From NCBI GenBank assembly GCA_040235515.1, contig JBECKX010000143.1:1-48120 (forward strand): a stretch of DNA of 48,120 nucleotides, in the 5' to 3' direction. Positions 1 through 36,886 of the stretch are shown in pieces. How positions within the stretch are numbered: the stretch's first letter is position 1; each line of letters starts with the position of its first letter. A model generated the notes under the pieces. That model did not search any database and was not told the origin of the DNA. It saw nothing but the letters and a program-made list of their open reading frames with translations. Source of the stretch: Candidatus Zixiibacteriota bacterium (GTDB lineage Bacteria > Zixibacteria > MSB-5A5 > CAIYYT01). Position numbers and translations under genes: made by a program.

Positions 1-1104
1 TTGAGGAAGTCGCTGTCGCGGCGCGGTAAGAAGATCACTGATCTGGGGCGCTATGCGATTCATGTTCCGCTGCAGGTCAGCAGCGGTGATCCGGTGCCGT
101 TGACCATCAGGGAACTCAAGGCGGCGCTGAGTGCGTTCTTGGCCGGCGAGTATGGCGCCGAGGTGCATCCGGACAAGGAGATGTTGTTGTTGCCCGGCGC
201 GCGCACGGCGCTGCTGTTGCTCGCCACCTTCTTTGCCGACGCGAGCACGACCTATCATCTTCCCGACCCCGGTTATGATGCGTACCGCAAATTTGCGATG
301 TTGTTCGACGCGAGGGTCGAGCATTATCCGCTATATCAGCGCAACGACTACATTCCGAACCTGGAACAGTTGGCGAAGGCTGTTGGAAAGAATCTCAACT
401 TAGTGTTTGTCAATTCGCCGCACAATCCGAGCGGGACGATTTGCGATCAGGAATTCCTGGCGAAGTTACACCGGCATGCGTCGGAACATAATTACCTGCT
501 GGTGGTTGACTCATCTTATGCCCTCCCCTTTGCGGGCAATTTCAGGCCGCCGCTCTACTGCGAGACGAGGCGGCATCTGCGCAACGGGTTGGAGATGATC
601 AGCTTCTCCACCGGATTCCTTAACCCTGACCTCAAGCTGACGATTCTGATGGGGAGGCGATCGCTGATCCAGCCGTTGGGAGAGGCGGCGCGGTCGCTCG
701 GGTTGAAGCCGCTGCAGCCGATGCTTGATGTTGCCAGCAGCTATTTTGCCTCGGTAGCGACGATGCAGGAGCATATTGTGCGTTGCCGCGCCGAATTGGG
801 GGAACGTATTCAGGTGGTAAGCAAGCGGCTCAAGGAATCATCGCTGGAGTATTTCCCGGTAGCGGGTACCGGATACTTCTGGGTGAAGTTGCATCGGCGC
901 CGCATAGCGTTGAACTTTGCTCGCTCCCTGCTGCGGCAGCGGGGGATTCTGGTAGCGCCGGGAACGTCGTTCGGCGAGCAGGGGGAGGGCTGGATACGAC
1001 TTTGTGCCAACGTGACGGGCGAGGAACTGGAGAAGGCGGTCGACGGATTTTGCCGTCATGTCGCGCCGATCAAGTCACGGTTGCGCAGGAGGAAGACGGA
1101 ATGA
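1..1104 (+). CDS. Class I/II aminotransferase-fold protein (probably 5'-partial; Schiff-base Lys apparently absent)
   Basis: PDPGY, NSPHNPSG, VDSSY, PGTSFG..GEGWIRL motifs; SFST where SxSK is expected. Confidence 0.8.
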   Translation: MRKSLSRRGKKITDLGRYAIHVPLQVSSGDPVPLTIRELKAALSAFLAGEYGAEVHPDKEMLLLPGARTALLLLATFFADASTTYHLPDPGYDAYRKFAMLFDARVEHYPLYQRNDYIPNLEQLAKAVGKNLNLVFVNSPHNPSGTICDQEFLAKLHRHASEHNYLLVVDSSYALPFAGNFRPPLYCETRRHLRNGLEMISFSTGFLNPDLKLTILMGRRSLIQPLGEAARSLGLKPLQPMLDVASSYFASVATMQEHIVRCRAELGERIQVVSKRLKESSLEYFPVAGTGYFWVKLHRRRIALNFARSLLRQRGILVAPGTSFGEQGEGWIRLCANVTGEELEKAVDGFCRHVAPIKSRLRRRKTE

Positions 1105-9980: not shown

Positions 9981-10191
9981 CGACCAACACACCCCGGCTT
10001 GCGGTCGCTGAAGCGACCTTAAGCCTGCCCCTCTCAAGAGGGGCGAGCGTTTGTTGGGCTGGCTCCATTTGGGCTGCCGAGAGAGTGGCACAGGTTGAGA
10101 TGGGTGCGTGTTAAGATGCTCTTGTGAGGCGGGATGAATGAGGATCGCTGCAAGTAAGCTCACGCCGTGCACGAGGACGTACACGGCGCAC
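9981..10191. repeat. ~200-bp direct repeat, left copy (family A + REP-like hairpin)
   Basis: Near-identical to 11972-12175. Confidence 0.93.
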
Positions 10192-11971: not shown

Positions 11972-12175
11972 AACACACCCCGGCTTGCGGTCGCTGAAGC
12001 GACCTCAGCCTGCCCCTCTCAAGAGGGGCGAGCGTTTGTTGGGCTGGCTCCATTTGGGCTGCCGAGAGAGTGGCACAGGTTGAGATGGGTGCGTGTTAAG
12101 ATGCTCTTGTGAGGCGGGATCAATGAGGATCGCTGTAAGTAAGACCAAGCCGTGCACGAGGACGTACACGACACA
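11972..12175. repeat. ~200-bp direct repeat, right copy
   Basis: Near-identical to 9981-10191. Confidence 0.93.
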
Positions 12176-12419
12176 CGGGAAGGGAGACGCCGTGCACGGG
12201 GACGTACACGACGCACTGGAAGGAAGACGCCGCGCACGAGGACGTACACGACGCACGGGAAGGGAGACGCCGTGCACGAGGACGTACACGACGCGCGGGA
12301 AGGAAGACGCCGCGCACGGGGACGTACACGACGCAAGGGAAGGGAGACGCCGCGCACGGGGAGGTACGCGACGCACTGGAAGGAAGACGTCGTGCACGAG
12401 GACGTACACGACGCACGGA
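12149..12419. repeat. Tandem array of a 40-bp REP-like unit (~6.75 copies)
   Basis: Unit GCCGTGCACGAGGACGTACACGACGCACGGGAAGGGAGAC starting at 12149, 12189, 12229, 12269, 12309, 12349 and 12389; each holds an imperfect hairpin. Confidence 0.95.
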
Positions 12420-12494
12420 CCGAAACCTGGGTTTTCCCGAGCGTGAGCGGCGTACGTCCTCGTGCGCCGCGGGTTGAACGACGCGGTCACACCC

Positions 12495-16268: not shown

Positions 16269-17714
16269 GTGATAGATAAAATCGAGAAACATTCGGAGAG
16301 TATTCTTACCTACCTGGCCGGCAAGTGCGAGTATGCCGATTTGCGTGCTGAAGAGATCAGCAGCGAGCGGTTGTCGACATCGTCGCGGACCACGAATCCG
16401 CCCGAGAAGTCGGACTCGACCGGTATTGCGATCAGGGTATTGCGCAACGGCTCCTGGGGTTTCGCAGCGACTTCACAGGTAAGTGAAAAGAACCTGAAAC
16501 GGATGGCCGATCTGGCGCTGGAGATCGCTGCGGCATCAGCCAGCGTGAACTCAGAAAAGCTGGAGTTGTCGGAGTTGCCCGCCGTGACCGACGAATACTC
16601 GACGCCGTTCGAGCAGGACCCATTCGCGCTGAGTTTGTCGGAGAAAAACGACCTGTTGCTCGGCTGGGAGGATTTGATCTACAAGACTGAGGGGATTAGC
16701 TCGAGTTCGACGTTCCTCGATTTCAGAAGAATTCAGAAATATTTTCAGGCGACCAACGGCAGCAAGTTGCGGCAGACGTTGATGCAGTGTGGCGCGGGAG
16801 TCAGCTGCGGTATGGTGATGGGGCACCGCGAGCGGTACGAGCGATCATTTCCGACAGCTTCGGGACAGTTTGTTACCGGAGGGTTCGAGCAGATTGCGAC
16901 GTTCAAGATTGAGGAGAATATCGAGCGGATTGCGAGTGAGGCACTGGCTCTCAAGGATGCGCAGGAGTGTCCTTCGGGTGAGATGACGGTTATCCTTTCG
17001 CCGGACCTGGCATCGTTGCAGATTCATGAGTCGATCGGGCATCCGCTGGAGTTAGACCGTGTCTTCGGTTCGGAGCGGAATTTCTCAGGGACAAGTTTTG
17101 CGACCCCCGACAAGCTGGGTAAGCTGCAGTATGGTTCGGAGATAATCAACCTCTTCAGCGATCCTGCGTTCCCCGGTGGACTGGCTACCTACGGTTATGA
17201 TGATGAGGGTGTCAAGGCGGATCGCGTGCCGTTGCTGCAGAAGGGTGTGTTGGTCGGCTACTTGAGTTCGCGCGAGACGGCGCAGCGGGTGGGGATGGCG
17301 TCCTCTGCGGCGGCGCGGGCTGATGGCTGGGGAAACGTGCCGCTGGTACGGATGACGAACCTGATCCTGGAGCCGGGAGAGCAAAAGTTTGCGGATATGC
17401 TCTCGGAGGTTGATGAAGGGATATATATCGAGGGGACCTCGACCTGGTCGATCGATGACAACCGCGAGGATTTCAACCTGGGCGGTGAAGTGGGCTGGGA
17501 GATCAAGGGTGGCAAGCTGGGTGCGATGATCAAGTCGCCTACATATTCGGGGAGTACCGTGGATTTTTGGAATAAGTGTGATTCGGTGGGGCATAGAGAT
17601 GAATGGGTGTTGTGGGGGACACCGAACTGCGGCAAGGGTGAGCCGGGACAGAATGCTCGCACCGCGCAGGGAGCCGCGTATTTGCGGTTCCGGAATGTGA
17701 AGGTGGGCGCATGA
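16269..17714 (+). CDS. tldD: TldD metalloprotease
   Basis: HESIGH (HExxxH), YDDEGV, RMTNL, CGKG. Confidence 0.93.
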   Translation: MIDKIEKHSESILTYLAGKCEYADLRAEEISSERLSTSSRTTNPPEKSDSTGIAIRVLRNGSWGFAATSQVSEKNLKRMADLALEIAAASASVNSEKLELSELPAVTDEYSTPFEQDPFALSLSEKNDLLLGWEDLIYKTEGISSSSTFLDFRRIQKYFQATNGSKLRQTLMQCGAGVSCGMVMGHRERYERSFPTASGQFVTGGFEQIATFKIEENIERIASEALALKDAQECPSGEMTVILSPDLASLQIHESIGHPLELDRVFGSERNFSGTSFATPDKLGKLQYGSEIINLFSDPAFPGGLATYGYDDEGVKADRVPLLQKGVLVGYLSSRETAQRVGMASSAAARADGWGNVPLVRMTNLILEPGEQKFADMLSEVDEGIYIEGTSTWSIDDNREDFNLGGEVGWEIKGGKLGAMIKSPTYSGSTVDFWNKCDSVGHRDEWVLWGTPNCGKGEPGQNARTAQGAAYLRFRNVKVGA

Positions 17715-19048
17715 TCTCGAGAGAAGATACCAGGAGATTGCTGCAGGCGGGGTTGGATGCCTCGAAGGCAGATCAGACCGAAGTAGTATTGATCGGAGAA
17801 GACTTGAGCCTGACGCGATTTGCCGAGTCGCAGATCCATCAGAACCTGTATCGCTCCGATACGATGATTCACGTACGGGCGATCAAGGAGAAGCGGATAG
17901 GGATTGCATCCACCGGCAGGTTGAATACGGAAGCTGTGGCTGCAGCCGCCCGGGAGGCGCTGGCGATTGCCGAGCTGGTTCCTGCGGATGAGGATTTTGC
18001 ATCGCTGCCGGGCAAGGCGGATTTCAGGGAACTGAAGACCTTTTATCAGAGCACGGCGGAGTTCTCACCCACGCAACGGGCAGAGGTAGTGGGCAAGCTG
18101 GTGAAGGCGTGCGCCGAGCACAAGTTGAAGACAGCGGGAGCCTACCGCAACTATGTCGAGACTGTCGGAGTGATGAACTCGCTCGGAGTCGACAGTTTCA
18201 ATCAGTCGACGCGGGCCGAATTGTCGGCAACGGTCGTCGGTGATAGCGGCAATTCCGGCTGGGGGATCGCCTACAGCCGCGATACGAATGCTATTGATGT
18301 CGGTGAGCTTACGGAAGTCGCGATCGACAAGGCATTGCGATCCGTCAATCCGGTGAAGCTTGAATCGGGGCAGTACACGGTAATTCTTGAGCCGGCAGCA
18401 GTGGGACAGTTGTTGTTATTCCTGGCGTTCATGGGCTTTGGCGGCAAGACATTCTATCAGCACCGTTCCTTCATGGCTGGGAAGATCGGCGAGCAGATTA
18501 CGGGTGAGAAGATTACGATAGTTGAAGACCCGCTCAATCCGGAGATTGCGGGTACTCCGTTCGACTATGAGGGGGTGCCGCGTCAGCAGGTGCCGCTGGT
18601 TGAGAGGGGTGTCGCGAAGGGTGTCGTTTACAACAGCTACTATGCGAATCTTGCGGGGGTGAAGTCGACCGGTCATGCGCTGCCGCCGGACAACAGCTAC
18701 GGCCCTTACCCGAAGCATATGACGATGGCGGGCGGTGAGCACACACTCAAGGAGATGGTGGCTGCAACCGAGCGCGGTGTCTATATCACGCATTTCTGGT
18801 ACGTCAATTTCCTCAACCCGATGCAGACGATGGTTACCGGCACGACGCGTGATGGTACGTTTCTGATCGAGAATGGCGAGATTACCAGCGCGGTGGAGAA
18901 CATGAGGATGAGCCAGTCGATTCTGGAGGCATTCAGCAACGCGACAATGCTCTCGAAGCAACGTAAGCTTTATCCGCAGTATTCGGTTGTGATGCTGGTA
19001 CCGGCAATGAAGGTGGACAACTTCAATCTTGAAGCTCTGGAGGGTTAG
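17711..19048 (+). CDS. pmbA: TldE/PmbA family protein
   Basis: TRFAESQIHQ, VILEP.AV, FDYEG, STGHA, TGTTRDG; no HExxxH; coupled to tldD. Confidence 0.88.
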   Translation: MISREDTRRLLQAGLDASKADQTEVVLIGEDLSLTRFAESQIHQNLYRSDTMIHVRAIKEKRIGIASTGRLNTEAVAAAAREALAIAELVPADEDFASLPGKADFRELKTFYQSTAEFSPTQRAEVVGKLVKACAEHKLKTAGAYRNYVETVGVMNSLGVDSFNQSTRAELSATVVGDSGNSGWGIAYSRDTNAIDVGELTEVAIDKALRSVNPVKLESGQYTVILEPAAVGQLLLFLAFMGFGGKTFYQHRSFMAGKIGEQITGEKITIVEDPLNPEIAGTPFDYEGVPRQQVPLVERGVAKGVVYNSYYANLAGVKSTGHALPPDNSYGPYPKHMTMAGGEHTLKEMVAATERGVYITHFWYVNFLNPMQTMVTGTTRDGTFLIENGEITSAVENMRMSQSILEAFSNATMLSKQRKLYPQYSVVMLVPAMKVDNFNLEALEG

Positions 19049-22500: not shown

Positions 22501-22713
22501 TTGAGTGCATCCTGGCGCGGTGCACGGGGACGTACACCGCGCACCCCTGCAATCGACTAGTGAGCTGGTGCTGACACGGGATATCTGAGAAAGGGGCAAC
22601 TGCGAGGGCAGGTTGAGGGAGCCTGCCCTTCTGGATTTTACTGCACCCTCCCGGTGATCAAGGGGGATTTTGAGGCGTGACAGAGGATTCGAGGGGTAGT
22701 AAGAAGGGCCACT

Positions 22714-22897
22714 GCTGCAACACACCCCTGCCTCCGAGCGCGTCACTTCGTGACGGTTTCGGAGTCGACCCCTCTCAAGAGGGGTTGGGCTACGACTCAC
22801 CGATCCTTGCAGTGAGATTTGGGCGGTTCGCAGGGCCGAGCTTTCGTGGTTCAGGCTCCTGAGTAGGAGAGATCGCCACGTCCCGGCTCCGCTGCGC
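22714..22897. repeat. ~184-bp direct repeat, copy 1 (family A variant)
   Basis: Near-identical to 23093-23276. Confidence 0.9.
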
Positions 22898-23000
22898 GGA
22901 GCCGATCCTCGCGATGACAATTCTTCGATCCACTGGATTAGAACAAGGCAGATACTTTTCCCGCTTCTACCTTCCGGCAATTGTGTGTAAGTGATGGATC

Positions 23001-23080: not shown

Positions 23081-23092
23081 TCTAGGTACACC

Positions 23093-23276
23093 GCTGCAAC
23101 ACACCCCCGCCCCCGAACACGTCACTTCGTGACGGTTTCGGAGTCGACCCCTCTCAAGAGGGGTTGGGCTACGACTCACCGATCCTTGCCGTGAGATTTG
23201 GGCGGTTCGCAAGTCCGAGCTTTCGTGGTTCAGGCTCCTGAGTAGGAGAGATCGCCACGTCCCGCGTCCGCTGCGC
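23093..23276. repeat. ~184-bp direct repeat, copy 2
   Basis: Near-identical to 22714-22897. Confidence 0.9.
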
Positions 23277-23331
23277 CGTGTCGGGTTTATTTTGTTGACG
23301 GTTCAGTCCGCCAAAGGCATCTTTGATCAGA

Positions 23332-25611
23332 ATGACTACCGAGACACCGGAATCAACGATACCGCAGTATCCGATCCTGCATTCCGATATCAGGATGCAG
23401 ACCGAGACTGTGGAGGGCGAAACCTTCTACAATCTCAAATCACCTCAGATCGCCAAGTATATCCGGCTGAGAGAACCTGAGTATTTCCTGCTGCAGCAGT
23501 TCGATGGTACACGCACGGTTGAGGATGCTGCGGAGGAGTTTATCCGCACGTTCAAGAAGACGATCACGCCGGAGGCTGTTGCGGGATTCGTGAGTCAGCT
23601 CTCAAAGCTGGGATTTTTCGAGGGGATCTCAGCGGCCAAGGTTCGCAAAAACAAGTCGGTGCTGGCGATTCGACTGCGGACGATTAACCCCGACAGGTTC
23701 CTTGACTGGTTCCACCCGAAGATCAAGCTGTTCCTGACTCCGGGCATGATATTCGTCGAGAGTCTCTTCATTCTCGCGGGCGCGCTGGTTTTCTTCGCGA
23801 ACATAGAACATTTCAGCTTCAATCTTCTGCAGTTGTATGGCGCAGCGGATATTGCGACGATCATCCTCTCGCTCTTTGCGATTTTCATCGTGCATGAGTT
23901 TGCTCACGCGGTTGTATGCAAGCATTTCGGCGGATCGGTCACCGAGATTGGAGTGCTTCTGCTTTACTTCCAGCCGTGCGTATTCTGCAACCTGTCTGAC
24001 GCTTATCTTTTTCCTGAGAAGCGTCAACGTCTGCTGGTGATGTTTGCGGGGGTGTTTTTCCAGCTGATCCTCTGGTCGGCGTTCACGATTTTGTGGCGGA
24101 TAACAAATGAAGGGTATCTGCTGAATCGGGTTTTTTATCTGACGTCGGCGGTGTCATTTGCGACGCTGGTATTCAACTTCAATCCGGCCATCAAGCTCGA
24201 CGGCTACTATATCCTGGCTGATTGGCTGCAAATCCCGAATCTTCGCCAGAAGGCGTTTGCATTTTTGTGGAGCAGGACGAAATCCGGCGTCTTCGGTTGT
24301 ACTCCCGATTTTGAGGCGCCCAGTAAGCGTGAGGCGAAGATCTACTGGCGCTACGGGGTGGTGTCGGTGCTCTACTCCGGGTTTCTGATCGGGTTCGTGG
24401 TTTACCGAGCCGGTGAGCTATTCGTCAAGGAATGGGGTGGAACCGGATTTGTATTGTTCACGATTCTTTCTTTGGTTATCTTCAATGGATTGCTTCGCTC
24501 GTTCGGAAGCAAGATAGCGGAAGTTTGGAGAGAGAGGAAGCGGGTCTGGATGAAGCCTAAGCGTCTGATCGCTTACAGCATCGTTATCGCCGTAATCGTA
24601 CTGCTGGCGGTATTCGTACAGATCAACCAAACTGCGGGGGGACCGGCGCGTCTGATTGCGGCGGAATCATTCGTGATTTCGAGGATCGCTCCAAGTTTGC
24701 TGGAGACATCTTATTACAAGGGGGGAGTGCTCGAACGAAATTCCTCACAGATATTCAATATTGCAGCATACGACTACTCGGTGACCAAGGTGATCCCTGA
24801 GGTTGCGGTCGGGGATACGGTGGAGGCGGGAGATACGCTGCTCGTCATCAATTCGTTGCTGAGCCAGGGATTGCTGGCCGAGGCGCGCTCTGATTTGCAG
24901 AAGGCTGAAGCGGAACGACGCTTGTTGCTCTCCGATCCGAAGAACGAGGAGATTGCTCAGAAGAAGTCGATGGTGAAGGAGGCGGAGGCTGTTTACGAGA
25001 AGGCGCGCAAGGAGTTTAACCGCACCAAGGAGTTGTACGAGAAGCAGTTCGTATCGGAGGATGAGTACGAGAAGGCTGCGGCTTCATTCAATGTCGCCTA
25101 TTCTGCCTGGGACACCCGCAAGCATGAGCTTGAATTGCTGATGGCCGGTCCGCGCGCGGAGGAGATCAATAAAATCGATGCTGAGATATCAAAGCTGGAA
25201 TCACGCGTGGAGTATCTTGAGGAGCAGTATGAGGCATCGGTTATCACGTGTCCTTTCAGTGGTGTGCTGGTTGGGTCGTCGCGAGAACGAGATCTACTCC
25301 ATCTGGCGCGGATTGACACATTGATCGTCGAAGTAAAACTTGAGGAGGGGGATCTGGATATCCTCAACCCCGGCAATGATCTCGAGCTGCGGGTGAATGC
25401 ATTTCCGACCGAGCCGGAGCATGGAAAGGTGATCAAGCTCAAGCTTTCGCCAGATCTGACCGCCGTTGCGGCGGTTGCGAACCGGAGCAACCGGCTGCTG
25501 CCAGACATGAACGGTTATGCAAAAGTGGACTGTGGAAGTACGTCAATTGCGAGTTTGTCGATCAGAAAGGTGATGAGATTCTTCCGTTTAGAGTTTTGGT
25601 CCTGGTTTTAG
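23332..25611 (+). CDS. PqqD/RRE-like + M50 intramembrane Zn protease + HlyD adaptor fusion
   Basis: N-terminal EYFLLQQFDGTRTVEDA..FVSQLSKLGF (PqqD-like); HEFAH and NFNPAIKLDG (M50); VAVGDTV..GD, coiled coil, ITCPFSG (HlyD). Start 23323 or 23332. Confidence 0.85.
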   Translation: MTTETPESTIPQYPILHSDIRMQTETVEGETFYNLKSPQIAKYIRLREPEYFLLQQFDGTRTVEDAAEEFIRTFKKTITPEAVAGFVSQLSKLGFFEGISAAKVRKNKSVLAIRLRTINPDRFLDWFHPKIKLFLTPGMIFVESLFILAGALVFFANIEHFSFNLLQLYGAADIATIILSLFAIFIVHEFAHAVVCKHFGGSVTEIGVLLLYFQPCVFCNLSDAYLFPEKRQRLLVMFAGVFFQLILWSAFTILWRITNEGYLLNRVFYLTSAVSFATLVFNFNPAIKLDGYYILADWLQIPNLRQKAFAFLWSRTKSGVFGCTPDFEAPSKREAKIYWRYGVVSVLYSGFLIGFVVYRAGELFVKEWGGTGFVLFTILSLVIFNGLLRSFGSKIAEVWRERKRVWMKPKRLIAYSIVIAVIVLLAVFVQINQTAGGPARLIAAESFVISRIAPSLLETSYYKGGVLERNSSQIFNIAAYDYSVTKVIPEVAVGDTVEAGDTLLVINSLLSQGLLAEARSDLQKAEAERRLLLSDPKNEEIAQKKSMVKEAEAVYEKARKEFNRTKELYEKQFVSEDEYEKAAASFNVAYSAWDTRKHELELLMAGPRAEEINKIDAEISKLESRVEYLEEQYEASVITCPFSGVLVGSSRERDLLHLARIDTLIVEVKLEEGDLDILNPGNDLELRVNAFPTEPEHGKVIKLKLSPDLTAVAAVANRSNRLLPDMNGYAKVDCGSTSIASLSIRKVMRFFRLEFWSWF

Positions 25612-25615
25612 GCGG

Positions 25616-25663
25616 CTACTATATATAGTGGACAAGGGGATGGTCGTTGCCACTATCTTGTGT
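25616..25663. promoter_or_regulatory. Tandem NrdR-box-like sites
   Basis: ctaCTATATATAGtgg (25616-25631) and tgcCACTATCTTGtgt (25648-25663), 32 bp apart. Confidence 0.5.
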
Positions 25664-25683
25664 TTTGTCAAGGAGTTACGCTA

Positions 25684-25741
25684 CAAACTGTGACGCAGGA
25701 CTCAAAATAAGTTTGACAGAGTCACAGTTTGGTCGTATACT
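25684..25741 (+). promoter_or_regulatory. Sigma70 promoter with overlapping 11-bp inverted repeat
   Basis: TTGACA(25713)-17-TATACT(25736); CAAACTGTGAC (25684-25694) / GTCACAGTTTG (25721-25731). Confidence 0.8.
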
Positions 25742-25905
25742 TAAAGAGTAATATTTTGACTTGGGGGTGTGTCCGAAGCACAGGTCCGGATGCCGGCTCA
25801 ATCATCGAGTCAAAACATGGGACGTAAAAACACGTCACATCATCGCGATACCGATGTGACGTCGTGGTAACCGGTTCACTCAACTCATAGGAGGAGGTGA
25901 AGGCT

Positions 25906-25986
25906 TTGGAGAACTATAATCTTCGCATCGAGGAGTTAGAGGACAAGGTCGCACCCTCGCCGTACAGCGTGGGAGGACAAGTCTAA
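25906..25986 (+). CDS. 26-aa putative RiPP/signal precursor peptide MENYNLRIEELEDKVAPSPYSVGGQV
   Basis: AGGAGGTGA RBS just before TTG; own promoter and terminator; ELExxxAP leader-like motif; next to RRE-M50 fusion. Confidence 0.8.
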   Translation: MENYNLRIEELEDKVAPSPYSVGGQV

Positions 25987-26008
25987 CTTGCACCTCAACC
26001 GGTTTAGT

Positions 26009-26043
26009 AAAAGGACCGCCCGCAACGCGGTCCTTTTCTTTTT
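26009..26043. terminator. Bidirectional intrinsic terminator
   Basis: AAAAGGACCGC/GCGGTCCTTTT stem with A and T tails, between convergent genes. Confidence 0.85.
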
Positions 26044-26091
26044 GGCTACTTCTGCCTGTTGCTAACTTCGTCCGGGGAATTCGTTCCCGTG

Positions 26092-29000
26092 TTAGCTGAC
26101 CAACTCACGCATCTCGCGCAGACGGTCGGCGACGATCAATTTGTTGTCATCCTCAACGAAAAGCTCCCGCAGGTGCTCATCGCTGATGCTTCTTGCGAGC
26201 ATCTGGATTGTCTCAAACGCGCCGATGTAGGCGCTCATAGCTTTTTCATATTTCCGCAATTCGCGGAACGCTTCACCTGCAATCAGCAATGCCTGCCATT
26301 CGATTTCTTTGATGCCGAGAGCTCTGGCAGACTCGGCCGATTCGATCGCGTATTCGGCTGCGAGGTTGATATCGCCGTTGGAAAATGCCAGCCAAGCTTT
26401 TGAGTAGAGGCATTCGGGTTCAAAGGGTTTGAATATCTCCATCGAGCGTGATTGTTCAAGCTCCGCAATGATGAGAGCGGCGTCCTGCAATTGATCCTGC
26501 TCGAGGTGCCATTGCAGTTGTGCCAGGCGGATCATCATCAATTCGCGCCGCGCCGGGAGGTCAGCGATCAGGCGAGCAGCTTTGGTCAACTCAGACTCAA
26601 CCGTGCCGCCTGAATCACCCTCGGCGAGAGCAATCCGAGCAGACTTGATATGCACCTGCGCCATAGCTTTGGAATCACCCAGTTTTTTGGCATCCTCCAT
26701 CGCCTTGTCGATCCAGGCTCTTGCGGTCGCGAAATCGCGCACCACTCGAGCGAAATCGCAGAAGGCTGCTGAGAGTCGTGCGCTCAGGATATGATCGGTG
26801 ACCTGCTGTTCCAGAGGAGCGACGGTGTTCAGATACTTCGCGGCCTTCCCGTAGTTTCCGGTCGCCAGCATCAGCTCCGCCAGGTAGCACACGAAAGTTG
26901 CGCGAGAACTGACATCATTCTTGTTGCTGCGTCTCAGTCCGGTAGTGAGCCAGTTGAGCGCGCGTTTGTAGTGACCTCCGCGGTATTCCAGTTCGTAGAG
27001 GTTATCGTAATTGTAGGGCAGTTCGTTCTCGGCGCCGAGGTCGAGGTTGATTTCGAGCGCTTCTTTCAGGTATTCACGCGCTTTGGCGATCCGGTCAGCG
27101 TCAAGGCTGGCGCGGGCAAGATTGTTGAGCGAGCGCGCGAGTTCGAGTCTGTCGTTGAGTTCGCGTTTGATTGCAATCGACTCCTCATAGAGTTCGATCG
27201 CAGGCTCGAGGTCTTGTTGAACTGCCATCACCGTACCGAGGTTAGAGAGCGTAGAGGCGATGTCCCGGCGCACATTGAGTCGGCGCTGAATCTCGAGCGC
27301 GCGATGATAATCCTGCGCAGCGCCTTTGAGATCTCCGGCAATCCAGTGCAGGTTACCGATGTTGTTGAAGCAGTGCGAGAGTTCCAGTTCGTTGCCGGCC
27401 TTCTCGTAATATTCTGTCGCTTTGGCCAGCGCACGCAATCCGCGGGCGAACTGGCGTTTGTCTTTGTAGCTATCCCCGACGCGCTTGTATGCTTCCGCCA
27501 GTATTGCGGTATCGTTGAGCCTGTTCGCGTTGCGGATCACGAAGGAGAAGATGCGTAATGCTTCGTCCACCTTGCCGAGTTTCTTGGCGGCAGCGGCGAG
27601 ATGGATGAAGTACCAGAGCACCGGTTCGGTTGGCGATGATTCGGTCGCCAGGCGGCGCACACGCGATAAGACCTCATACGCTTCTTCAAAATCCTGGTTC
27701 GCCGAATGGAGCTGGGCGAACTTGATTGAGGCGGCGATTGCCTCCTCGGGGAGCATCGCAGCGACATAATGCTCGTAGAGGTAGCGAATTTTGCTGTCGT
27801 CATCGCCCTGGTCTGATGCCTGCAGATGGGCGATCCACTCGGCATGGAATTGGCGGCGTTCGTTCAGATCGAGCGCATGGTGGAAGTAGAGGCGCATGTA
27901 GGAACGAACAAAGCGCTGCTGTTTGTCGCTGAGAATGCCTGCTTGCGTTAGCGCCGCCAGATCAGCCTGGCTGACGAGTCGAGAGCTGACGAGGTTTTCC
28001 ACGGGATACCCGGAGTTGTCGCAGGCGAGGAATGCCGCGACAGGAACGATATTGTGATCGACTTCGGGCATCAGGGTAGCGAGCTTGTCCCAGTATTCAT
28101 CGTCGGGCGTGAAGCGGTCGATTTCATCGGGGGGGAGTCCGAGACGAAGTTTACGGATATCGAGGTAACCCTGGTGCTGAAGCGATACCAGCAAGAGGGA
28201 GAGCAGGGCAAGGTTGCCGGCCGTGTAGTCCTGGATGAGCGACTGATAGCGGGGCAGCAGGTCGCGGCGCAGTATTTTGCTTGAGAGTCTCATCAGGCTG
28301 TCGTGCGTGATCTCGGGATACTCGATCAGCTTCGCGGATGCCGCTGACTGGTTCAGCCGTTGCTGCAGTTGAATCGAGCCACCGGTGTCGGATTCGGTGG
28401 AGAATCGTATCAGGCGATTCTGGTGGTCGATCTCGACATGGCAGAATGATGTTTTCAGGTAGTCGGTGATACATTCGAAGAGTCCCGATTCCGGGTCTTG
28501 CAGGTTGTCCGCGATGAACAGGTCGCCTTCCATCTCCTTGAACTCCTGCATACAGAAGCTGAAATTGAAGGAGCGGAAGTGGTGATGGACATAGTTACGG
28601 ATATCGGGGCTTTCGATCACTTGCGGATCGACAAGACGCTCGCCGAGCAGGTGATCGATGAACGAGCGAGCCGTTGAGATGCGCTCCTCGACGTTGGGAT
28701 GGAGGGCTTTTCTGAGGAATTCAACGGTGCGAGCGCTGATGAGAGATTCGATATCGTCCCAGTCGATACTTTCGAGATCCTGCTTTGCCGCCACGACTTT
28801 GAGCGGATCGGTTCCGGCAAACGGCAGCTTGCCGGTTACGAGCCGGTAGAGGGTGACGCCGAGGGAGTAGATGTCTGAGGCGATCGTTGCGCCTTCATTT
28901 CGCATGATCTCAGGGGCCATATATTCGAGGGTGCCGCTGCGGTCGCGGTCGGCAGAGCCTGATGAGATGGCGAGTCCGAGATCGCTGATGCGCGGTGTGC

Positions 29001-29418
29001 CATCCTGGGCGATCAGGACATTCTCACCCTTGATATCGCGGTGGATCAGGCCGACGTTGTGGAGGTATTCGAACCCGGTGAGGGTTTGCGCGAACAGCCG
29101 CAGGCGATGCTCCAGGGGCAGCTTATCGGATGCCTGGTAGAGGTCTCCGCCCTGACAGAGTTCCATGACGATGAATGGCCTGCCATCCTCCATACAGCCG
29201 AAGTCGAAGAGGGAGACTACAGCGGTATGCTTGAGACTCCTGAGCAGAGTGTACTCGGTCGTGAATGAGTGACGAGCTGCGGGAGTGTTCTCGTGGGCAA
29301 TCTTGACTGCAACGGTCCCCAGTTCAGGGTGGTTGGCAGACCAGACTTCACCCCCACCGCCCGTGCCAACCCTTTCGACTGCCGCAAGCTCTGCGGATGC
29401 TGGAAACCGCATCGCCAT
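26092..29418 (-). CDS. Ser/Thr protein kinase with C-terminal TPR array
   Basis: GTGGGGEV, VAVK, HRDIKGEN, DLG, GTLEYMAPE; repeats such as ASTLSNLG..A...YEESIAI. Confidence 0.92.
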   Translation of the reverse strand: MAMRFPASAELAAVERVGTGGGGEVWSANHPELGTVAVKIAHENTPAARHSFTTEYTLLRSLKHTAVVSLFDFGCMEDGRPFIVMELCQGGDLYQASDKLPLEHRLRLFAQTLTGFEYLHNVGLIHRDIKGENVLIAQDGTPRISDLGLAISSGSADRDRSGTLEYMAPEIMRNEGATIASDIYSLGVTLYRLVTGKLPFAGTDPLKVVAAKQDLESIDWDDIESLISARTVEFLRKALHPNVEERISTARSFIDHLLGERLVDPQVIESPDIRNYVHHHFRSFNFSFCMQEFKEMEGDLFIADNLQDPESGLFECITDYLKTSFCHVEIDHQNRLIRFSTESDTGGSIQLQQRLNQSAASAKLIEYPEITHDSLMRLSSKILRRDLLPRYQSLIQDYTAGNLALLSLLLVSLQHQGYLDIRKLRLGLPPDEIDRFTPDDEYWDKLATLMPEVDHNIVPVAAFLACDNSGYPVENLVSSRLVSQADLAALTQAGILSDKQQRFVRSYMRLYFHHALDLNERRQFHAEWIAHLQASDQGDDDSKIRYLYEHYVAAMLPEEAIAASIKFAQLHSANQDFEEAYEVLSRVRRLATESSPTEPVLWYFIHLAAAAKKLGKVDEALRIFSFVIRNANRLNDTAILAEAYKRVGDSYKDKRQFARGLRALAKATEYYEKAGNELELSHCFNNIGNLHWIAGDLKGAAQDYHRALEIQRRLNVRRDIASTLSNLGTVMAVQQDLEPAIELYEESIAIKRELNDRLELARSLNNLARASLDADRIAKAREYLKEALEINLDLGAENELPYNYDNLYELEYRGGHYKRALNWLTTGLRRSNKNDVSSRATFVCYLAELMLATGNYGKAAKYLNTVAPLEQQVTDHILSARLSAAFCDFARVVRDFATARAWIDKAMEDAKKLGDSKAMAQVHIKSARIALAEGDSGGTVESELTKAARLIADLPARRELMMIRLAQLQWHLEQDQLQDAALIIAELEQSRSMEIFKPFEPECLYSKAWLAFSNGDINLAAEYAIESAESARALGIKEIEWQALLIAGEAFRELRKYEKAMSAYIGAFETIQMLARSISDEHLRELFVEDDNKLIVADRLREMRELVS

Positions 29419-29427
29419 AAGGAATCT

Positions 29428-31167
29428 TTATTTCTTCTTGGGTAGTGCTACTCTGAACTCAGTAAACTTACCCGGTTCGCTGGTTACAGAAATATCGCCG
29501 CCGTGACTTTCGATGATCCGCTTACAATTGGAGAGTCCGAGGCCGTGTCCATGCTTCTTGGTGGAGAAGTGGGGCTCGAAGACTTTCTGCAGGTTGGCGG
29601 CATCGATTCCACAACCGGAATCACGAACGGTTGCTACGACCATGTTGTTCTCGGTCCGGGTCGTGATGCGAATCTCCAGTTTGCCGTCGGAACCATCGAG
29701 GGCGTCGGCAGCGTTGTAGAGCAGGTTAAGAAACACCTGCTGGATCTGGCCGACATCGAGGTCGCAATCGGGGAGATCGGGGCTCATTCTGACTACAAAA
29801 CCGACATTTTTGAAGCGTGGCTGTGATTTGATCGTGAAGAGCAAATCGTCAATCAGGTGATTGATGTTGTATGCCACCAGCTCCTGATCGAGTTTGGAAA
29901 GATCCATCAGGTTGTCGGTAAAGCGCTTGATCTTGTCGATGTTCTCAAGAATCGCGTGCAGCGACTTGCTCAGTTTTTCCGGTTCGTTCTTTTCGAGACG
30001 CACCTGCATCAACTCAGCATTGTTGGAGATGATCGCCAGGAAGTTGTTGAGTTCATGACCGATCGAAGCGGCCATCTCACCTTTGGCGATCAGTTTTTCC
30101 GAGACGGTTACGTAGTTTTCGAGAATCGTTTTCTCGGTGATATCTTCGATCACGATGATCAGGCCTCTGCCGTTGGCATCGGCGCTCTCGAGCGGTGAGA
30201 ACTTGGCAGAGATAACTTTCTCTTCCTCGCCGATCGCGATGTAACAGCGGGGGAGGTCCTCGGAGATACTCTGGTTGAGAACATGCTGCATCGCCTGTTC
30301 CCAGCGCATGGTGTTGTTTTCGTCGAGGAAGCCGAGGAAGTCGGCGCCGCGTTCGCATGGTTTTCCGAAGATGCGCTCCGCGGAGGAGTTCATCGTAATG
30401 ATTTCGAGCTTGTTGTTCAGCACCACCAACCCGACCGGCGTGTTGGTGACGATGTTTTCGTTAAAGCGTTTGAGCCGCAGGATATGTTCGTAGAGGCGCG
30501 AGTTGTTGATCGCGATTGCGGCCTGGGTCGCGAAGAGCTCGAAGAGCACGAGGTCGCTCTCGAGGAAGAGGCGGCCTTCGCTGGAACTGTCGAGGTAGAT
30601 TACCCCAATGACCTTGTTCTCGATTTTTAGCGGAACGCAGACGATCGAGCGCAGGTTGAGGCTCTGGATCGACTCCTGGTTCGCAAAACGGCTATCGTTT
30701 TGCGCATCGGAGGTATGGTCTGACTTACCGGTTTTCGCCACGCGGTTGGCCACGGATTGCGAATACTTGAAGTCCTCCTGCATCAACTCTTCTTTGCAGA
30801 GGTTGTAGACAGTCCGGAACTGCAGCTTGTTATCCTCATCGAGCAGCATGAGGAAGCCACGTTCGGCCTGCAGCAGCTCGATCGCTCGTTTCATAACGAT
30901 CTGGAGGATTTCGTCCGTGACGAGTGAACTGTTCACCAGAGCGGCGATCTCAAGCAGGGCCCGGTAATTGTTGTTCGCCTCTCCACCGCCTTTGTCGGTG
31001 CGCAGGGAGGGTCGATTTTTCATGAGATCGTCAACCGCGTTTTGTCCTTCGCTGAGAAAATCACGCGACTTGGCGGACCCTTTTTTGCGGTCAGGAGCTT
31101 CGTCGACCGGAATGATAAACTTGTCAGTCCGCTCCAAACCTTTCGAGTCTCTTGGCTTAAATGGCAT
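29428..31167 (-). CDS. GAF-PAS sensor histidine kinase
   Basis: GAF (RSIVCVPL..IGVIYLD), PAS, HELNN, N/G1/F/G2 boxes; ATG 31167 fits GAGG RBS. Confidence 0.93.
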   Translation of the reverse strand: MPFKPRDSKGLERTDKFIIPVDEAPDRKKGSAKSRDFLSEGQNAVDDLMKNRPSLRTDKGGGEANNNYRALLEIAALVNSSLVTDEILQIVMKRAIELLQAERGFLMLLDEDNKLQFRTVYNLCKEELMQEDFKYSQSVANRVAKTGKSDHTSDAQNDSRFANQESIQSLNLRSIVCVPLKIENKVIGVIYLDSSSEGRLFLESDLVLFELFATQAAIAINNSRLYEHILRLKRFNENIVTNTPVGLVVLNNKLEIITMNSSAERIFGKPCERGADFLGFLDENNTMRWEQAMQHVLNQSISEDLPRCYIAIGEEEKVISAKFSPLESADANGRGLIIVIEDITEKTILENYVTVSEKLIAKGEMAASIGHELNNFLAIISNNAELMQVRLEKNEPEKLSKSLHAILENIDKIKRFTDNLMDLSKLDQELVAYNINHLIDDLLFTIKSQPRFKNVGFVVRMSPDLPDCDLDVGQIQQVFLNLLYNAADALDGSDGKLEIRITTRTENNMVVATVRDSGCGIDAANLQKVFEPHFSTKKHGHGLGLSNCKRIIESHGGDISVTSEPGKFTEFRVALPKKK

Positions 31168-31456
31168 GGTCAATTCCTCATACGCCAGGTCTATTGAATA
31201 AAACTGTTATGTACTCTGCGTCTATCTTTGCGTCCTGCTGACAGGTACAGTAATACCAGTGCTGACTTGTCATCTAGGGTATCGGCTTTTTGCTACTTAA
31301 GTTAAGTCGTTATTGCCATTCGAGTCACATCGAAGCGGAGGCGAAAATTGTCAGTGGGAAGTGAGCGGGGGCTGATAGCAGCGTGGGTGGGGAGTTTTCA
31401 GCCTGGCGGCGGATACCGCAATGGCTTTAACACGCTGTGGGATAGATGGTTATGTA

Positions 31457-33169
31457 TCAGAAAGAATGTTGGCCGAGGATGCTGATGCGGAAATCATCAC
31501 TCGATCCGCCAAACGGTTTGGTTGCCTCCAGGCGGAGAGCCTTGAAGAACCAGATGCCGGCTCCGTAGTCGCCCTGCCAGCGATTATCAGTCAGGAAATC
31601 GGAGGAGTCGCCGGTGACACCCAAATCGAGGATGGCGGCAAAGGCGAAAATCGATTCGTCGGGCTGGAGGATCAGTTCCGTGTTCAGCAGGGCCGCTCGC
31701 GTGCCGTAGAATTCCTTGATTTTGTGGCCACGCAGAGTACGAATGCCGCCGAGGTAGAAGAGGCGATGGAGCGGGGGTGATCCGGTCACGGCGCCATACA
31801 GCGCTCGCGTATTGAGCGAGAGCTTGTGGATCAGCGGCTGGTAACGGCGCAGCTCCAGTCGGTAGCGGTCGTAGTTGAATTTAGAATCGATTCCCTCGGA
31901 AGAGTGCTGATAGAGGATCTGAGCATACCAGCCGTGTGGTTGCGGCTGGAGGAGATCGAAGGTGGAATTGAAGGTATAGCTGATCTCGAAGAGGGCTTCG
32001 TCGAGGGTGAAGCTATTCTGGCCGGCGGCACGTAACTGCTCCGGCAGGGAGGAGAAGTTGGAGCGGAAGCCGTGATCCCCCCCGAAGAGCGACCAGAGCC
32101 GTCGGTGCGCCGCGAGGGAGTCGCGTTCTTCGAACGAGAATTGCGCGCGCAGGTGGTGAACATACTTGTAGCTTTGTTCGACGTAGATCTTACCGCCTTC
32201 GCCATCCCAGTAGTCGCGGTAGTCTTCGGCATTGAGGAGGGCATAGAGCGTGTTTTCGTCACGACCGGCGCGCCAGTCGTCGTCGGTTCTCGATTGTCGG
32301 TAGGCTGATCCGCCGAAGATCAACTGGTTGTAGTCACCGATAGTCTCTTTGAAACCGAGTTCATACTTGCCACGTTCTGACTCGAGTCCGTAGCCGAAGT
32401 TGAAGAAGAAGGAGGGAACGTAGTTGTCGGGGGGATAGAATGCGATTCCTGCGCCGACCTCCAGTCCATCGACTCGATTGTAGCTGATATGGGGAGCCCA
32501 CTCAATCGGGTCGTTGCCATACTTGATGCGACGCCGTTTCACGATATCGGAGCGTTTCCATTTCTCGGTTGATTGGACGGCGCCATAGATGCGTGATTCG
32601 TGGCTGGTTTCGATTGCGCCTCCGACGGCGTAGACATCACGGTGGCAGATTCCCTTATCCTCCAACTTAACGTCACCGAACAGCGAGACGATATGCCCAT
32701 TAACTTCGCCGCGAATGGTGACATCCCCGGCGATCGAAATGAGGCTGCCGCGAACGAAGTCGCGCTCTACGATTTCGATCGGATGGAAGAGATTCACGAT
32801 ATCCGCACCGCCGCGCCTGATCTGTCGCGCGGAGAGTTCTTTCCGGACGAGTGTAAGATCATAGAAGCCTTCGCGATCACTAACCCCGCCTACGGAGAGG
32901 GTTGCGAGATTTTCGGAGAGTTTCCCGATCGTCAGAATCGAATCCGCGATGACTATTTCGCCTCGGAAGTTAACCCGGTTGTTGGTGACGTTGATCTCTT
33001 CGTAGCGGCAACTGGTAGCAGCGGACTTCTCCCCCTGAGTGATCCGGAGTTCACACGACTCCTTATTGAAGGAGATCGTGACTATTGTTCCCTCATCCGC
33101 CGTCGCGGTCGACCAGAGGAACAGGAGGGATAACGAGAGTGAGAGAAGTGTCCGTTTGATCATGTCCAT
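31457..33169 (-). CDS. Outer-membrane protein, BamA/TamA-like C-terminal barrel
   Basis: Signal peptide, short G-D-V repeats, YNRVDG, FYLGG..TLRG, terminal Phe; start uncertain. Confidence 0.7.
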   Translation of the reverse strand: MDMIKRTLLSLSLSLLFLWSTATADEGTIVTISFNKESCELRITQGEKSAATSCRYEEINVTNNRVNFRGEIVIADSILTIGKLSENLATLSVGGVSDREGFYDLTLVRKELSARQIRRGGADIVNLFHPIEIVERDFVRGSLISIAGDVTIRGEVNGHIVSLFGDVKLEDKGICHRDVYAVGGAIETSHESRIYGAVQSTEKWKRSDIVKRRRIKYGNDPIEWAPHISYNRVDGLEVGAGIAFYPPDNYVPSFFFNFGYGLESERGKYELGFKETIGDYNQLIFGGSAYRQSRTDDDWRAGRDENTLYALLNAEDYRDYWDGEGGKIYVEQSYKYVHHLRAQFSFEERDSLAAHRRLWSLFGGDHGFRSNFSSLPEQLRAAGQNSFTLDEALFEISYTFNSTFDLLQPQPHGWYAQILYQHSSEGIDSKFNYDRYRLELRRYQPLIHKLSLNTRALYGAVTGSPPLHRLFYLGGIRTLRGHKIKEFYGTRAALLNTELILQPDESIFAFAAILDLGVTGDSSDFLTDNRWQGDYGAGIWFFKALRLEATKPFGGSSDDFRISILGQHSF

Positions 33170-33298
33170 AAGTTGAGAATCGGCTGAACCAGATATCCTT
33201 TCCAGTTCATATTCTTTAGACGGCAATAAGTTGGTTCCTGTAAGAAGCGCAACGTAGAAATCACGCCGCCACCGTGGCTAAACCGCCAATGAGTTGTT

Positions 33299-33844
33299 TC
33301 ACCTGAGGAGATCGGGGAAGCGTTGTTTAAAATCGGCAATTGCCTGGAGATGAGCAGCGAATGCGATATTCTGAGGAATCTCAGCTTTCGAAAAGAAACA
33401 CGCGGCAGCGGCATCATCCCCGGCCTTGAGCGTGCCACCGGTAACTTCGCAGAGGAAGAGAACCAGAATCGCGTTCGTACGCGGATCATCGGTACCGGAG
33501 TAGACCTCAAAGAGTTCACCGGCCTTGATCAGCAACCCGGTTTCTTCTTCGATTTCGCGCTCGGCGCAGCGGCGGGGAGATTCGTTCCACTCCATAAAGC
33601 CGGCGGGGATGCACCAATCGTCTTTGTAGGGGTCTTGCGCGCGTTTGACCAGCAGGAGCCTGCCATCCTGAACGATCATTGCACCGGCGGCGGGTGCGGG
33701 GTTGTGAAAATCGACGAAGCCGCACTCGGGACAGACCTTGCGTTGTCGATGGTCATAGCCGGTGACCTGCAATTCGCTTCGGCAAAGCGGGCAATAGATG
33801 AAACTAGAGATTGGGTGTTTAGTCTGCTTGTAATGCTTGGTCAT
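33299..33844 (-). CDS. NUDIX hydrolase with N-terminal Zn ribbon
   Basis: CPLC..CPEC; Nudix box GFMEWNESPRRCAEREIEEETG. Confidence 0.92.
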   Translation of the reverse strand: MTKHYKQTKHPISSFIYCPLCRSELQVTGYDHRQRKVCPECGFVDFHNPAPAAGAMIVQDGRLLLVKRAQDPYKDDWCIPAGFMEWNESPRRCAEREIEEETGLLIKAGELFEVYSGTDDPRTNAILVLFLCEVTGGTLKAGDDAAAACFFSKAEIPQNIAFAAHLQAIADFKQRFPDLLR

Positions 33845-36080: not shown

Positions 36081-36100
36081 GTCTCCTCCTGCTGACGCTG

Positions 36101-36526
36101 TTATTTCAGTTTCTTGATCAGGATAACCCGGGTGCCGCCACCGTTGGCCTGCTCGATATCAACCTGATCCATCAGATTCTTAACGATAAAGATACCCCGA
36201 CCAACTTCGCGCATGAGATTGGCATCGTCCACCGGGTTGGCGACTTCCTCGGGGTTGAAGTATTTGCCCTGATCGGTGACGGTGATGGTCACTTCATCAG
36301 AGGCAAACGCCATCTCGAGAGTTACGGTCTTGCTACGGTCATCCTTATTTCCATGGATGATCCCGTTATTTACGACCTCGGTGGCGCAGATAGCGATGTC
36401 GGCAATAATCGAGTCATCGACATTGCGGTCGCGTAAACGTGATTCGACGAATTCGTCGACCTTTGCGATCAAGTTTTGATCGGAAGGTATGACAATCTTG
36501 TTGTCGTGGATCTCCGGTTCTTTCAT
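36101..36526 (-). CDS. Anti-sigma factor Ser kinase (RsbW-like)
   Basis: EVVNNGIIHGN, DQG, GRGIFIV. Confidence 0.92.
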   Translation of the reverse strand: MKEPEIHDNKIVIPSDQNLIAKVDEFVESRLRDRNVDDSIIADIAICATEVVNNGIIHGNKDDRSKTVTLEMAFASDEVTITVTDQGKYFNPEEVANPVDDANLMREVGRGIFIVKNLMDQVDIEQANGGGTRVILIKKLK

Positions 36527-36547
36527 CCAGATAGCCTGCCGCTTCTT

Positions 36548-36886
36548 CTACTTAACGGCAGCTATAGCCTCGTCGGTCGAATCGTAAGCATCGAAGACGG
36601 TGACCAGCTTGGTGATTGTCAGGAGAGATTTGATTTTTTCGGTAACGTTGGAGAGTTTCAGTTCTCCGCCCGATTCTTTGACGGTCTTGAGGCAGGAGAT
36701 CATGATACCGAGGCCCGTGGAGTTCATCCAGTCAACTTCGGCGAGGTCGATGACGACGCGCTTCTTATCCTCATTGACGTAGTCGCGGATCGATTCTTTG
36801 AGAGCGGTGGCATCCGGCCCGCCCATGATTTTGCCCTTAGGCTCCAGAATGACGACTCCGTCCTGTTCACGGCTAGAAAGTTTCAT
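36548..36886 (-). CDS. STAS anti-sigma antagonist (RsbV-like)
   Basis: VVIDLAEVDWMNSTGLG, LLTITKL. Confidence 0.94.
   Translation of the reverse strand: MKLSSREQDGVVILEPKGKIMGGPDATALKESIRDYVNEDKKRVVIDLAEVDWMNSTGLGIMISCLKTVKESGGELKLSNVTEKIKSLLTITKLVTVFDAYDSTDEAIAAVK

Follow-up and report, generated by a model that had tools for sequence, protein, structure and literature searches.

Gene content of the locus

The window analysed here, positions 1 to 48,120 of contig JBECKX010000143.1 of a Candidatus Zixiibacteriota bacterium, contains a gene for a 26-residue peptide precursor between two larger genes. Upstream lies a gene encoding a fusion of a recognition element (RRE) of the kind that binds leaders of ribosomally made peptides that undergo post-translational modification (RiPPs), an M50 intramembrane zinc protease and a periplasmic adaptor. 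Downstream, in convergent orientation, lies a gene encoding a cytoplasmic protein made up of a Ser/Thr kinase, a degenerate STAND (signal transduction ATPase with numerous domains) part and tetratricopeptide repeats (TPR) (Table 1). We propose that the three genes form an export-and-sense peptide signalling circuit, and put the probability of this reading at about 0.45. A preliminary description of the sequence had presented a two-part system; its processing parts were recovered here, but the picture was incomplete in leaving the convergent kinase-STAND-TPR gene unmentioned.

Table 1. Features of the peptide locus, with positions in the window
Feature	Position	Strand	Remarks
RRE-M50 intramembrane zinc protease-periplasmic adaptor fusion	23332-25611	+	759 aa; proposed leader peptidase/exporter
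RRE/PqqD-fold head, residues 12-98 (modelled)	23365-23625	+	three strands, three helices
M50 zinc site, HEFAH 188-192 and N284...LDG291	23893-24204	+	
Periplasmic adaptor domain (HlyD/MacA/EmrA-like), residues ~430-738	24619-25545	+	follows last transmembrane helix 413-431
Predicted peptide-gene promoter, sigma-70 type	25713-25741	+	TTGACA-17-TATACT, 11/12 consensus matches
Shine-Dalgarno site	25890-25900	+	GGAGGAGGTGA, five bases ahead of TTG start
26-residue precursor ORF	25906-25986	+	start codon TTG rather than ATG
Precursor leader, 17 codons	25906-25956	+	C-terminal end E-L-E-x-K-V-A-P
Predicted core SPYSVGGQV and stop codon	25957-25986	+	monoisotopic 892.43 Da
Intrinsic terminator separating the peptide gene from the convergent kinase-TPR gene	26009-26045 (hairpin 26009-26037)	+	
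Cytoplasmic Ser/Thr kinase-degenerate STAND-TPR protein	26092-29418	-	1108 aa; proposed peptide receptor; convergent with peptide gene
TPR asparagine ladder N685, N686, N726, N765, N766, N806	27001-27366	-	proposed peptide groove
Cytoplasmic GAF-PAS-histidine kinase	29428-31173	-	just upstream of kinase-TPR gene

The small peptide gene

The 26-codon peptide gene is real and conserved. Its open reading frame (ORF) begins 294 bases after the stop codon of the fusion and stands behind its own promoter; the promoter, ribosome-binding site and terminator that the preliminary description had assigned to it were all located. Although lone promoter consensus matches in the peptide region were not above chance (2 found against 2.9 expected), when the upstream regions of 40 homologous loci were compared, 28 had the pattern TTGAC[AT]-16..18-TAnnnT (shuffled mean 0.55) and 38 a GGAGG[TA] ribosome site. 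Judged from these sequences, the small gene would be expressed independently from a strong promoter and ribosome site. The terminator between it and the kinase-TPR gene perhaps serves both directions.

Precursors of the family are 23–34 residues long. Their leader ends in E-x-L-E-x-[KR]-x-A-P, with E9, L11, E12, A16 and P17 invariant in 22 aligned precursors; the leader is acidic (net charge -3) and without a hydrophobic stretch (best 11-residue hydropathy -0.02). The family core pattern is x-G-x-S-x-G-G-Q. With genus g76 (see below) left out, 39 of 41 distinct cores were 7–11 residues long, 32 contained GG, 39 contained Ser and none contained Cys or ended in Thr. That the small ORF is untranslated, being a conserved RNA or a chance ORF, and that the fusion has another substrate, is hardly credible. 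The TTG start would suit such a reading, but extra alleles were spread over codon positions 1/2/3 as 21/13/43 (23 codons, 14 peptide copies), the ribosome site is conserved, and the peptide is conserved at the protein level across 17 families. Moreover, no other protein with the precursor leader was found in the genome using one leader profile, and an Rfam scan of the window at gathering score, which could have revealed a riboswitch or other described RNA ahead of the peptide gene, gave no match.

Some precursors depart from the usual form. At L070:9732-10356 and L122:8655-8885 the usual core carries an extension of the WGGxGGG type, genome G035 has two tandem copies, and genome G092 (L119:8717-9226) has a diverged precursor that has lost the A-P leader end and has a different core, with fusion and kinase ladder intact. 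A palindromic sequence, AACCGGTT, stands both before the ribosome site (25864-25874) and after the stop codon (25996-26005); its copies, able to pair the 5' untranslated region (UTR) with the 3' UTR, are a feature of family f1 and not phylum-wide. Pairing of the 3' UTR to the Shine-Dalgarno site was considered as a family feature and dropped (22 of 63 regions above shuffles, mean 0.15 versus 0.12).

The RRE-M50-adaptor fusion

The best NCBIfam match of the fusion was the daptide peptidase family NF041824 (E 2.5e-63, residues 35-390), at 214.5 bits against a cut-off of 300, and the identity to annotated MpaP was 26% over 353 residues. Pfam placed Peptidase_M50 above its cut-off. The zinc motifs of site-2 proteases, HExxH and NxxPxxxxDG, were both found in transmembrane helices. 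The HEFAH motif was as previously described, while the second one, earlier given as NxxPxxxLDG, reads NFNPAIKLDG (N284-x-x-x-x-LDG291); H188, E189, H192, N284, P285 and D290 were invariant in 80 of 80 fusion homologues. A structural model built from the alignment of the 80 homologues (mean predicted local distance difference test score, pLDDT, 85.7) replaced a single-sequence fold (pLDDT 46). The N-terminal 110 residues matched PqqD at E 0.03, and modelled residues 12-98 superposed on RREs of lasso-peptide systems, with Z 10.3 for 6jx3_B (83 residues at rmsd 2.7) and Z 10.2 for 5v1u_A (82 residues at rmsd 2.7), which supports an RRE fold for the head that had been described as PqqD-like. The modelled membrane part matched RseP (9j83, Z 9.1) and SpoIVFB (8vjl, Z 8.8), values that are middling for helical domains. 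As for the HlyD part of the earlier description, Pfam HlyD_D23 remained below its cut-off, and the assignment stands on the modelled tail, which matched EmrA (Z 13.7) and MacA (Z 13.4).

The daptide-like leader noted previously also held up. It aligned in register with four annotated daptide precursors as L-x3-E-L-E-x3-A-P, with E-8, L-7, E-6, A-2 and P-1 matching when the leader Pro is numbered -1, as in the available text of the daptide paper (bioRxiv 10.1101/2023.03.08.531785); position -4 is Met in the daptide leader ELExMEAP and Lys in the precursor here. Because of this match, predicted cleavage by the fusion after A-P is well supported by daptide homology, and the leader is very probably both bound and cut by the fusion. 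In agreement with the preliminary description, no ABC (ATP-binding cassette) transporter, TolC or RiPP tailoring family adjoined the fusion or the peptide gene among the 38 window proteins scanned. An ABC transporter was not a conserved neighbour at the loci read either, a partner encoded elsewhere being possible; 11 OEP matches elsewhere in the genome represent TolC-family channel genes, as candidate partners only. Between an unmodified peptide and one modified in trans, both of which had been entertained, the unmodified core is favoured, since the fusion was the sole PqqD/RRE match in a genome search with a fusion-derived RRE profile and PF05402, and since the cores have neither Cys nor terminal Thr.

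The kinase-STAND-TPR gene

A convergent TPR gene was found downstream of the peptide in 30 of 30 peptide loci. All three positions were listed for 112 of 201 genomes of the phylum. The peptide lay within 1.5 kb of both the kinase-TPR gene and the fusion in 62 of these, of the kinase alone in 39, of the fusion alone in four and of neither in seven, the last three classes being possibly inflated by contig breaks. The kinase-TPR gene was thus within that distance in 101 of the 112 genomes and the fusion in 66: the kinase-STAND-TPR gene is the most constant neighbour of the peptide and follows it more closely than the fusion does.

Orthologues of the kinase-TPR protein were 1008–1251 amino acids long (11 orthologues). 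AAA_16 was over its cut-off in two of the 11, and in the 1108-residue protein of the window the STAND domain is shortened and was not detected. The catalytic kinase motifs are intact, and neither this protein nor the GAF-PAS histidine kinase contains a hydrophobic helix. The best natural solved-structure matches of the TPR profile were LGN/Pins and kinesin light chain, proteins that bind extended peptides along an asparagine ladder. All 22 orthologues taken from genomes with the peptide had at least five of the six ladder asparagines, whereas all three from the peptide-less genus g61 had none or one. A predicted complex of the TPR region with the precursor, run without controls, had a median score of 0.30 against a mark of 0.32 and was not used as evidence.

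Co-occurrence of the peptide and the fusion

Among 41 related genomes, a profile built from 14 copies detected the peptide in the 35 that have the fusion and in none of the six without it. Of 201 genomes from the phylum, 168 yielded the peptide, 169 the kinase-TPR region and 175 the fusion, always at a single locus. Peptide and fusion occurred together in 166 genomes and neither in 24, with nine having the fusion only and two the peptide only. Two of the nine fusion-only genomes were inspected: the diverged peptide of G092 had been missed by the profile, and in G130 the locus stops at a contig edge. One of the two peptide-only genomes was a weak match (E 0.001). As related genomes are not independent, the co-occurrence is given as plain counts. 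Loss of unlinked loci is given by family f8 only, most other losses being single block deletions; in f8 the fusion locus is separate from the peptide-kinase locus, and genus g51 of this family is without all of them. As a sign of such block deletions, the histidine kinase lay directly against a CLC channel gene in 10 of 17 genomes that lack the fusion and had this locus inspected.

Genera that have lost parts of the system

Among 26 fusion-less genomes, the kinase-TPR gene was intact in G192, had a decayed groove in the three genomes of genus g61, was cut by a contig end in G174 and was not found in 21. In g61 (G096, G102 and G169) neither fusion nor peptide was found and the kinase-TPR gene is retained behind the histidine kinase. 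In G096 and G169 the next gene begins within 40 bases of the kinase-TPR gene; in G102 a run of N behind the kinase gene could hide a peptide. With conserved columns defined on 21 peptide-bearing orthologues (G192 held out), the kinase domain of g61 agrees at 28–29 of 30 columns and its TPR tail at 12 of 25, the six ladder positions reading SMDMGD, SMDIGE and KLKIGN. The held-out G192, which is peptide-bearing and belongs to the same family as g61, has 24 of 25 TPR columns and six of six ladder asparagines. Groove identity between g61 and members of its family was 26–31%, against 48% between two peptide-bearing members, whereas kinase identity was equal (41–44%).

Genus g76 (G121, G150, G186 and G196) presents the reverse case. 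The kinase gene is absent at its place and, at the level of an orthologue, genome-wide, and the fusion and leader are retained with four to seven tandem peptide copies of a different core, S[KR][YWF]G. The retention of the fusion and of multiplied peptides without the kinase suggests that there is value in exported cores even where the receptor is missing. Taken together, the decayed groove of g61 and the new core of g76 argue that the kinase-TPR gene is tied to the peptide; in these two cases the leader goes with the fusion and the core with the TPR region.

These genera bear on two other readings. The peptide may be exported for a job outside the cell, as a signal to a surface receptor or as a metal or matrix peptide, the kinase-TPR protein being adjacent to it or regulating from upstream, without ever binding it. 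Loci of g76 and of other lineages that run without the kinase would fit this, as would the kinase kept without a peptide in g61, and a shared terminator may be what holds the convergent genes together. We nevertheless consider it quite unlikely, as the groove asparagines were lost selectively where the peptide was lost, the core motif changed where the kinase was lost and, on rearrangement, the peptide stayed with the kinase gene in 39 genomes and with the gene for its own processing in four. A still smaller chance is given to the kinase being a tailoring enzyme, with the TPR region holding the precursor while the core Ser is phosphorylated and a phosphopeptide RiPP exported. Linear polyphosphorylated peptides offer a parallel in the available text of PMC13381572, the frequency of Ser in the cores and the intact catalytic motifs would suit it, and the neighbourhood and the ladder decay would be accounted for. 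Two cores are without Ser, however, one of them also without Thr or Tyr, though their kinases are intact; the kinase domain of g61, equally conserved without a peptide, implies other substrates; and a signalling role is suggested by the STAND domain and by the partner histidine kinase.

The wider fusion family

With E no higher than 1e-30, a profile of the fusion matched 7,446 clusters made at 50% identity, partial matches included. The family is thus large, and the open-licence PMC and bioRxiv literature yielded no account of it together with its precursors. From the next-closest fusion subfamily the best 80 of 551 metagenome loci were taken, many of them short. The same leader was borne by precursors in 54 of the 80 (0/80 shuffled), on low-complexity cores of 13–124 residues. 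Because relatives bear the same leader on such cores, the fusion looks like a general leader-addressed protease-exporter, of which the short core with a kinase receptor would be the phylum's own use. In the loci of other lineages (L126-L205), as many as five precursors stand in tandem upstream of the fusion, their repeat cores rich in Gly, Asn, Pro, Ser and His, and in 23 of the 80 a family of ~330-residue proteins without a Pfam match follows the fusion.

Proposed circuit and return route

We propose that expression of the small gene is independent and that the cytoplasmic RRE head would bind the leader and the M50 domain cut it after A-P, as fold and homology suggest and by analogy with daptides. 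The unmodified, glycine-rich core of 7–11 residues would leave through the fused adaptor with no ABC pump, the adaptor probably docking on a TolC-family channel encoded elsewhere. The core would then re-enter the same or a neighbouring cell, bind in the Asn-lined TPR groove and switch the kinase, and with it probably the GAF-PAS histidine kinase encoded next door; co-evolution points to the coupling of the peptide with the kinase-TPR protein. The parts of this scheme differ in strength: export of the core is probable, and so, to the same degree, is binding of the peptide in some form by the TPR region, while for a signal read after export and return the odds fall a little short of even.

Several observations weigh against the circuit. 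The usual route of peptide return is missing, as no Opp/Dpp binding protein was found in the genome (and in only three of 41 relatives) and no POT transporter was found in the genome; OPT and CstA transporters are present. The core is kept across families (S-x-G-G in 26 of the 41 distinct cores), unlike strain-specific pheromones. Each of the natural experiments, g61 and g76, represents one lineage, and the losses in families f7 and f15 say little because most are one block deletion of adjacent genes. The peptide lies more than 1.5 kb from the kinase in 11 of the 112 genomes. Elsewhere, long low-complexity cargo stands beside the fusion, and the kinase TPR profile found nothing at 1e-8 and two weak matches at 1e-3 in the 80 loci of other lineages. 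Finally, the GAF-PAS histidine kinase is kept in many genomes without the system, and the Omp85 gene of the window persists in five of five system-less genomes.

The rarity of Opp and the cytoplasmic location of the proposed receptor are in keeping with an export checkpoint. Here the TPR groove would sense the core while it is still part of precursors pooled in the cytoplasm, and the fusion would empty this pool by cutting and exporting. The kinase would then report whether the membrane, the zinc protease or the TolC route works, and no return route would be needed; the logic resembles that of the FlgM checkpoint. A single-copy gene with a consensus promoter and a core conserved across the phylum would also fit, and the groove decay of g61 fits equally. 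Nonetheless, g76 lost the kinase yet kept the fusion and multiplied its peptides, where a system that served purely as a reporter would be expected to degenerate once its sensor was gone. We regard the checkpoint as a strong rival to the export-and-return circuit, if an unlikely one.

Within the proposed circuit, the GAF-PAS histidine kinase is likely to be a partner or output, although not exclusive to it. Loss of GAF coupled to loss of the kinase was seen in three of four g76 genomes, G058 and G120, and was dropped as a rule since GAF is kept in most kinase-less genomes. Genes for an Omp85-family protein, a NUDIX protein, a GAF-SpoIIE phosphatase, an anti-sigma kinase and a STAS protein occupy 31457-36886 (-), and in many families this run is conserved on the upstream side of the histidine kinase; this partner-switching module could lie downstream of the circuit. 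The Omp85 gene as a dedicated channel was dropped, given its persistence in system-less genomes.

Comparison with known systems

Published systems are compared here as they appear in the available excerpts of the papers cited. Daptide MpaP/DapP (NF041824; bioRxiv 10.1101/2023.03.08.531785), whose precursors are MpaA/DapA, likewise has an RRE N-terminal to an intramembrane site-2 protease. The fusion differs in its sub-threshold score, fused adaptor, kinase-TPR partner and diderm host, and the cores, which are short and polar and never end in Thr, are unlike daptides. DapB/C/D/M were not found among the 38 window proteins or conserved neighbours, a scope that did not include a whole-genome search. 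EpeP/YydH (PMC10885120) and TmcP (PMC13712780) are also site-2-type membrane proteases that remove a RiPP leader, and EpeP is presumed to carry out export as well as cleavage (PMC10885120). The fusion scored 48.9 bits against the epipeptide family NF058609 (cut-off 225) and is without a radical SAM epimerase, and no adaptor fusion is described for EpeP or TmcP in the excerpts of these two papers.

Peptide signalling through intracellular TPR receptors has been described for Bacillota (PMC10075063). The RRNPP systems of that phylum have in common with the present module a small propeptide gene beside a cytoplasmic TPR protein and a short unmodified mature peptide, the latter predicted here. Their propeptides carry a Sec signal (or are of the SHP/PptAB type), whereas by charge and hydropathy the precursor here does not, and their receptors are 250–500 residues long (PMC10075063), against 1008–1251 with kinase and STAND parts. 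A dedicated RRE-protease-adaptor, the rarity of Opp and the presence of two membranes are further differences from RRNPP as described there. In RRNPP systems the TPRs bind the mature peptide after its re-import, a step that the proposed circuit would share. The STAND-TPR layout itself is shared with AfsR and PH0952. To our knowledge, no peptide ligand is known for these two proteins or for HstK-type kinases. The HstK-type dual kinases of cyanobacteria (cbSTKIII; PMC2176072) combine Ser/Thr kinase, GAF and histidine kinase in one unit; here these parts are split between two genes whose order is reversed, and they are linked to a peptide gene.

Type I secretion systems and ABC bacteriocin exporters join an ABC transporter to a periplasmic adaptor and a TolC-family channel. 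Of these, the modelled tail of the fusion has the adaptor fold, the TolC-family genes elsewhere in the genome are candidate channels, and no ABC transporter was found in the window or the conserved neighbourhood. The loci of Kamneva 2015 (PMC4452313) combine M50 and HlyD with a secondary SecA_DEAD and likewise have no ABC transporter, and the M50 helices were proposed as their pore. The secondary SecA, GAF-HlyD and extra adaptor of those loci were not found in the window or among conserved neighbours, and the excerpts of PMC4452313 do not name an RRE, precursor or kinase for that module. The present module is not a daptide cluster, as it has no terminal Thr and no modifying enzymes; it is not RRNPP, having no Sec signal and a receptor of other size and build; it is not a type I exporter, there being no ABC pump; and it is not a member of the SecA_DEAD loci. 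It combines processing from daptides, an RRNPP-like working and the M50-HlyD pairing of the Kamneva loci. No description of it was found in the open-licence PMC and bioRxiv literature, although the RRE supplements of the daptide preprint could list the family.

With somewhat less confidence than in the circuit itself, and tentatively, the module may represent a third architecture of bacterial peptide communication, a leader-addressed protease-exporter of a short unmodified peptide, without an ATP pump, joined to a STAND-TPR Ser/Thr kinase that would be the peptide's receptor inside the cell and be coupled to a histidine kinase. If this is true, TPR-receptor peptide signalling would extend to a diderm candidate phylum, in which it is vertically inherited, mostly single-copy and present in about four of five genomes, and a STAND-TPR kinase would have a defined small ligand. 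The locus offers a minimal test for pump-free peptide export by an intramembrane protease and adaptor, for which the decayed receptors of g61 and the changed cores of g76 supply natural controls.

Other features of the window

Upstream of the fusion, two 200-base copies (22705-22904 and 23084-23283) are 93% identical. The core of this repeat occurs at ~25 places genome-wide without an Rfam match and looks like an interspersed element of the REP (repetitive extragenic palindromic) or MITE (miniature inverted-repeat transposable element) kind; being interspersed genome-wide, it was rejected as part of the system. A TldD/TldE pair (16269-19048, +) four kb upstream of the fusion was also excluded, as it was a neighbour in at most two loci. 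At 12109-12468, units of 40 bases are arrayed in tandem and an inverted copy closes the array, scattered single copies being found at 10163-10191 and 22516-22544 and two more on contig C113. Three ORFs of 281 amino acids (9056-9901, +; 10202-11047, -; 11054-11899, -) had no Pfam or NCBIfam match; two of them have in common a stretch that is 72% identical, and there are flanking repeats. The ORFs are possibly a paralogue family or mobile element. A 730-amino-acid ORF at 41045-43237 (-) gave a weak match (25 bits, cut-off 60) to NF053851, the N-terminal domain of the Bdellovibrio mosaic adhesive trimer.

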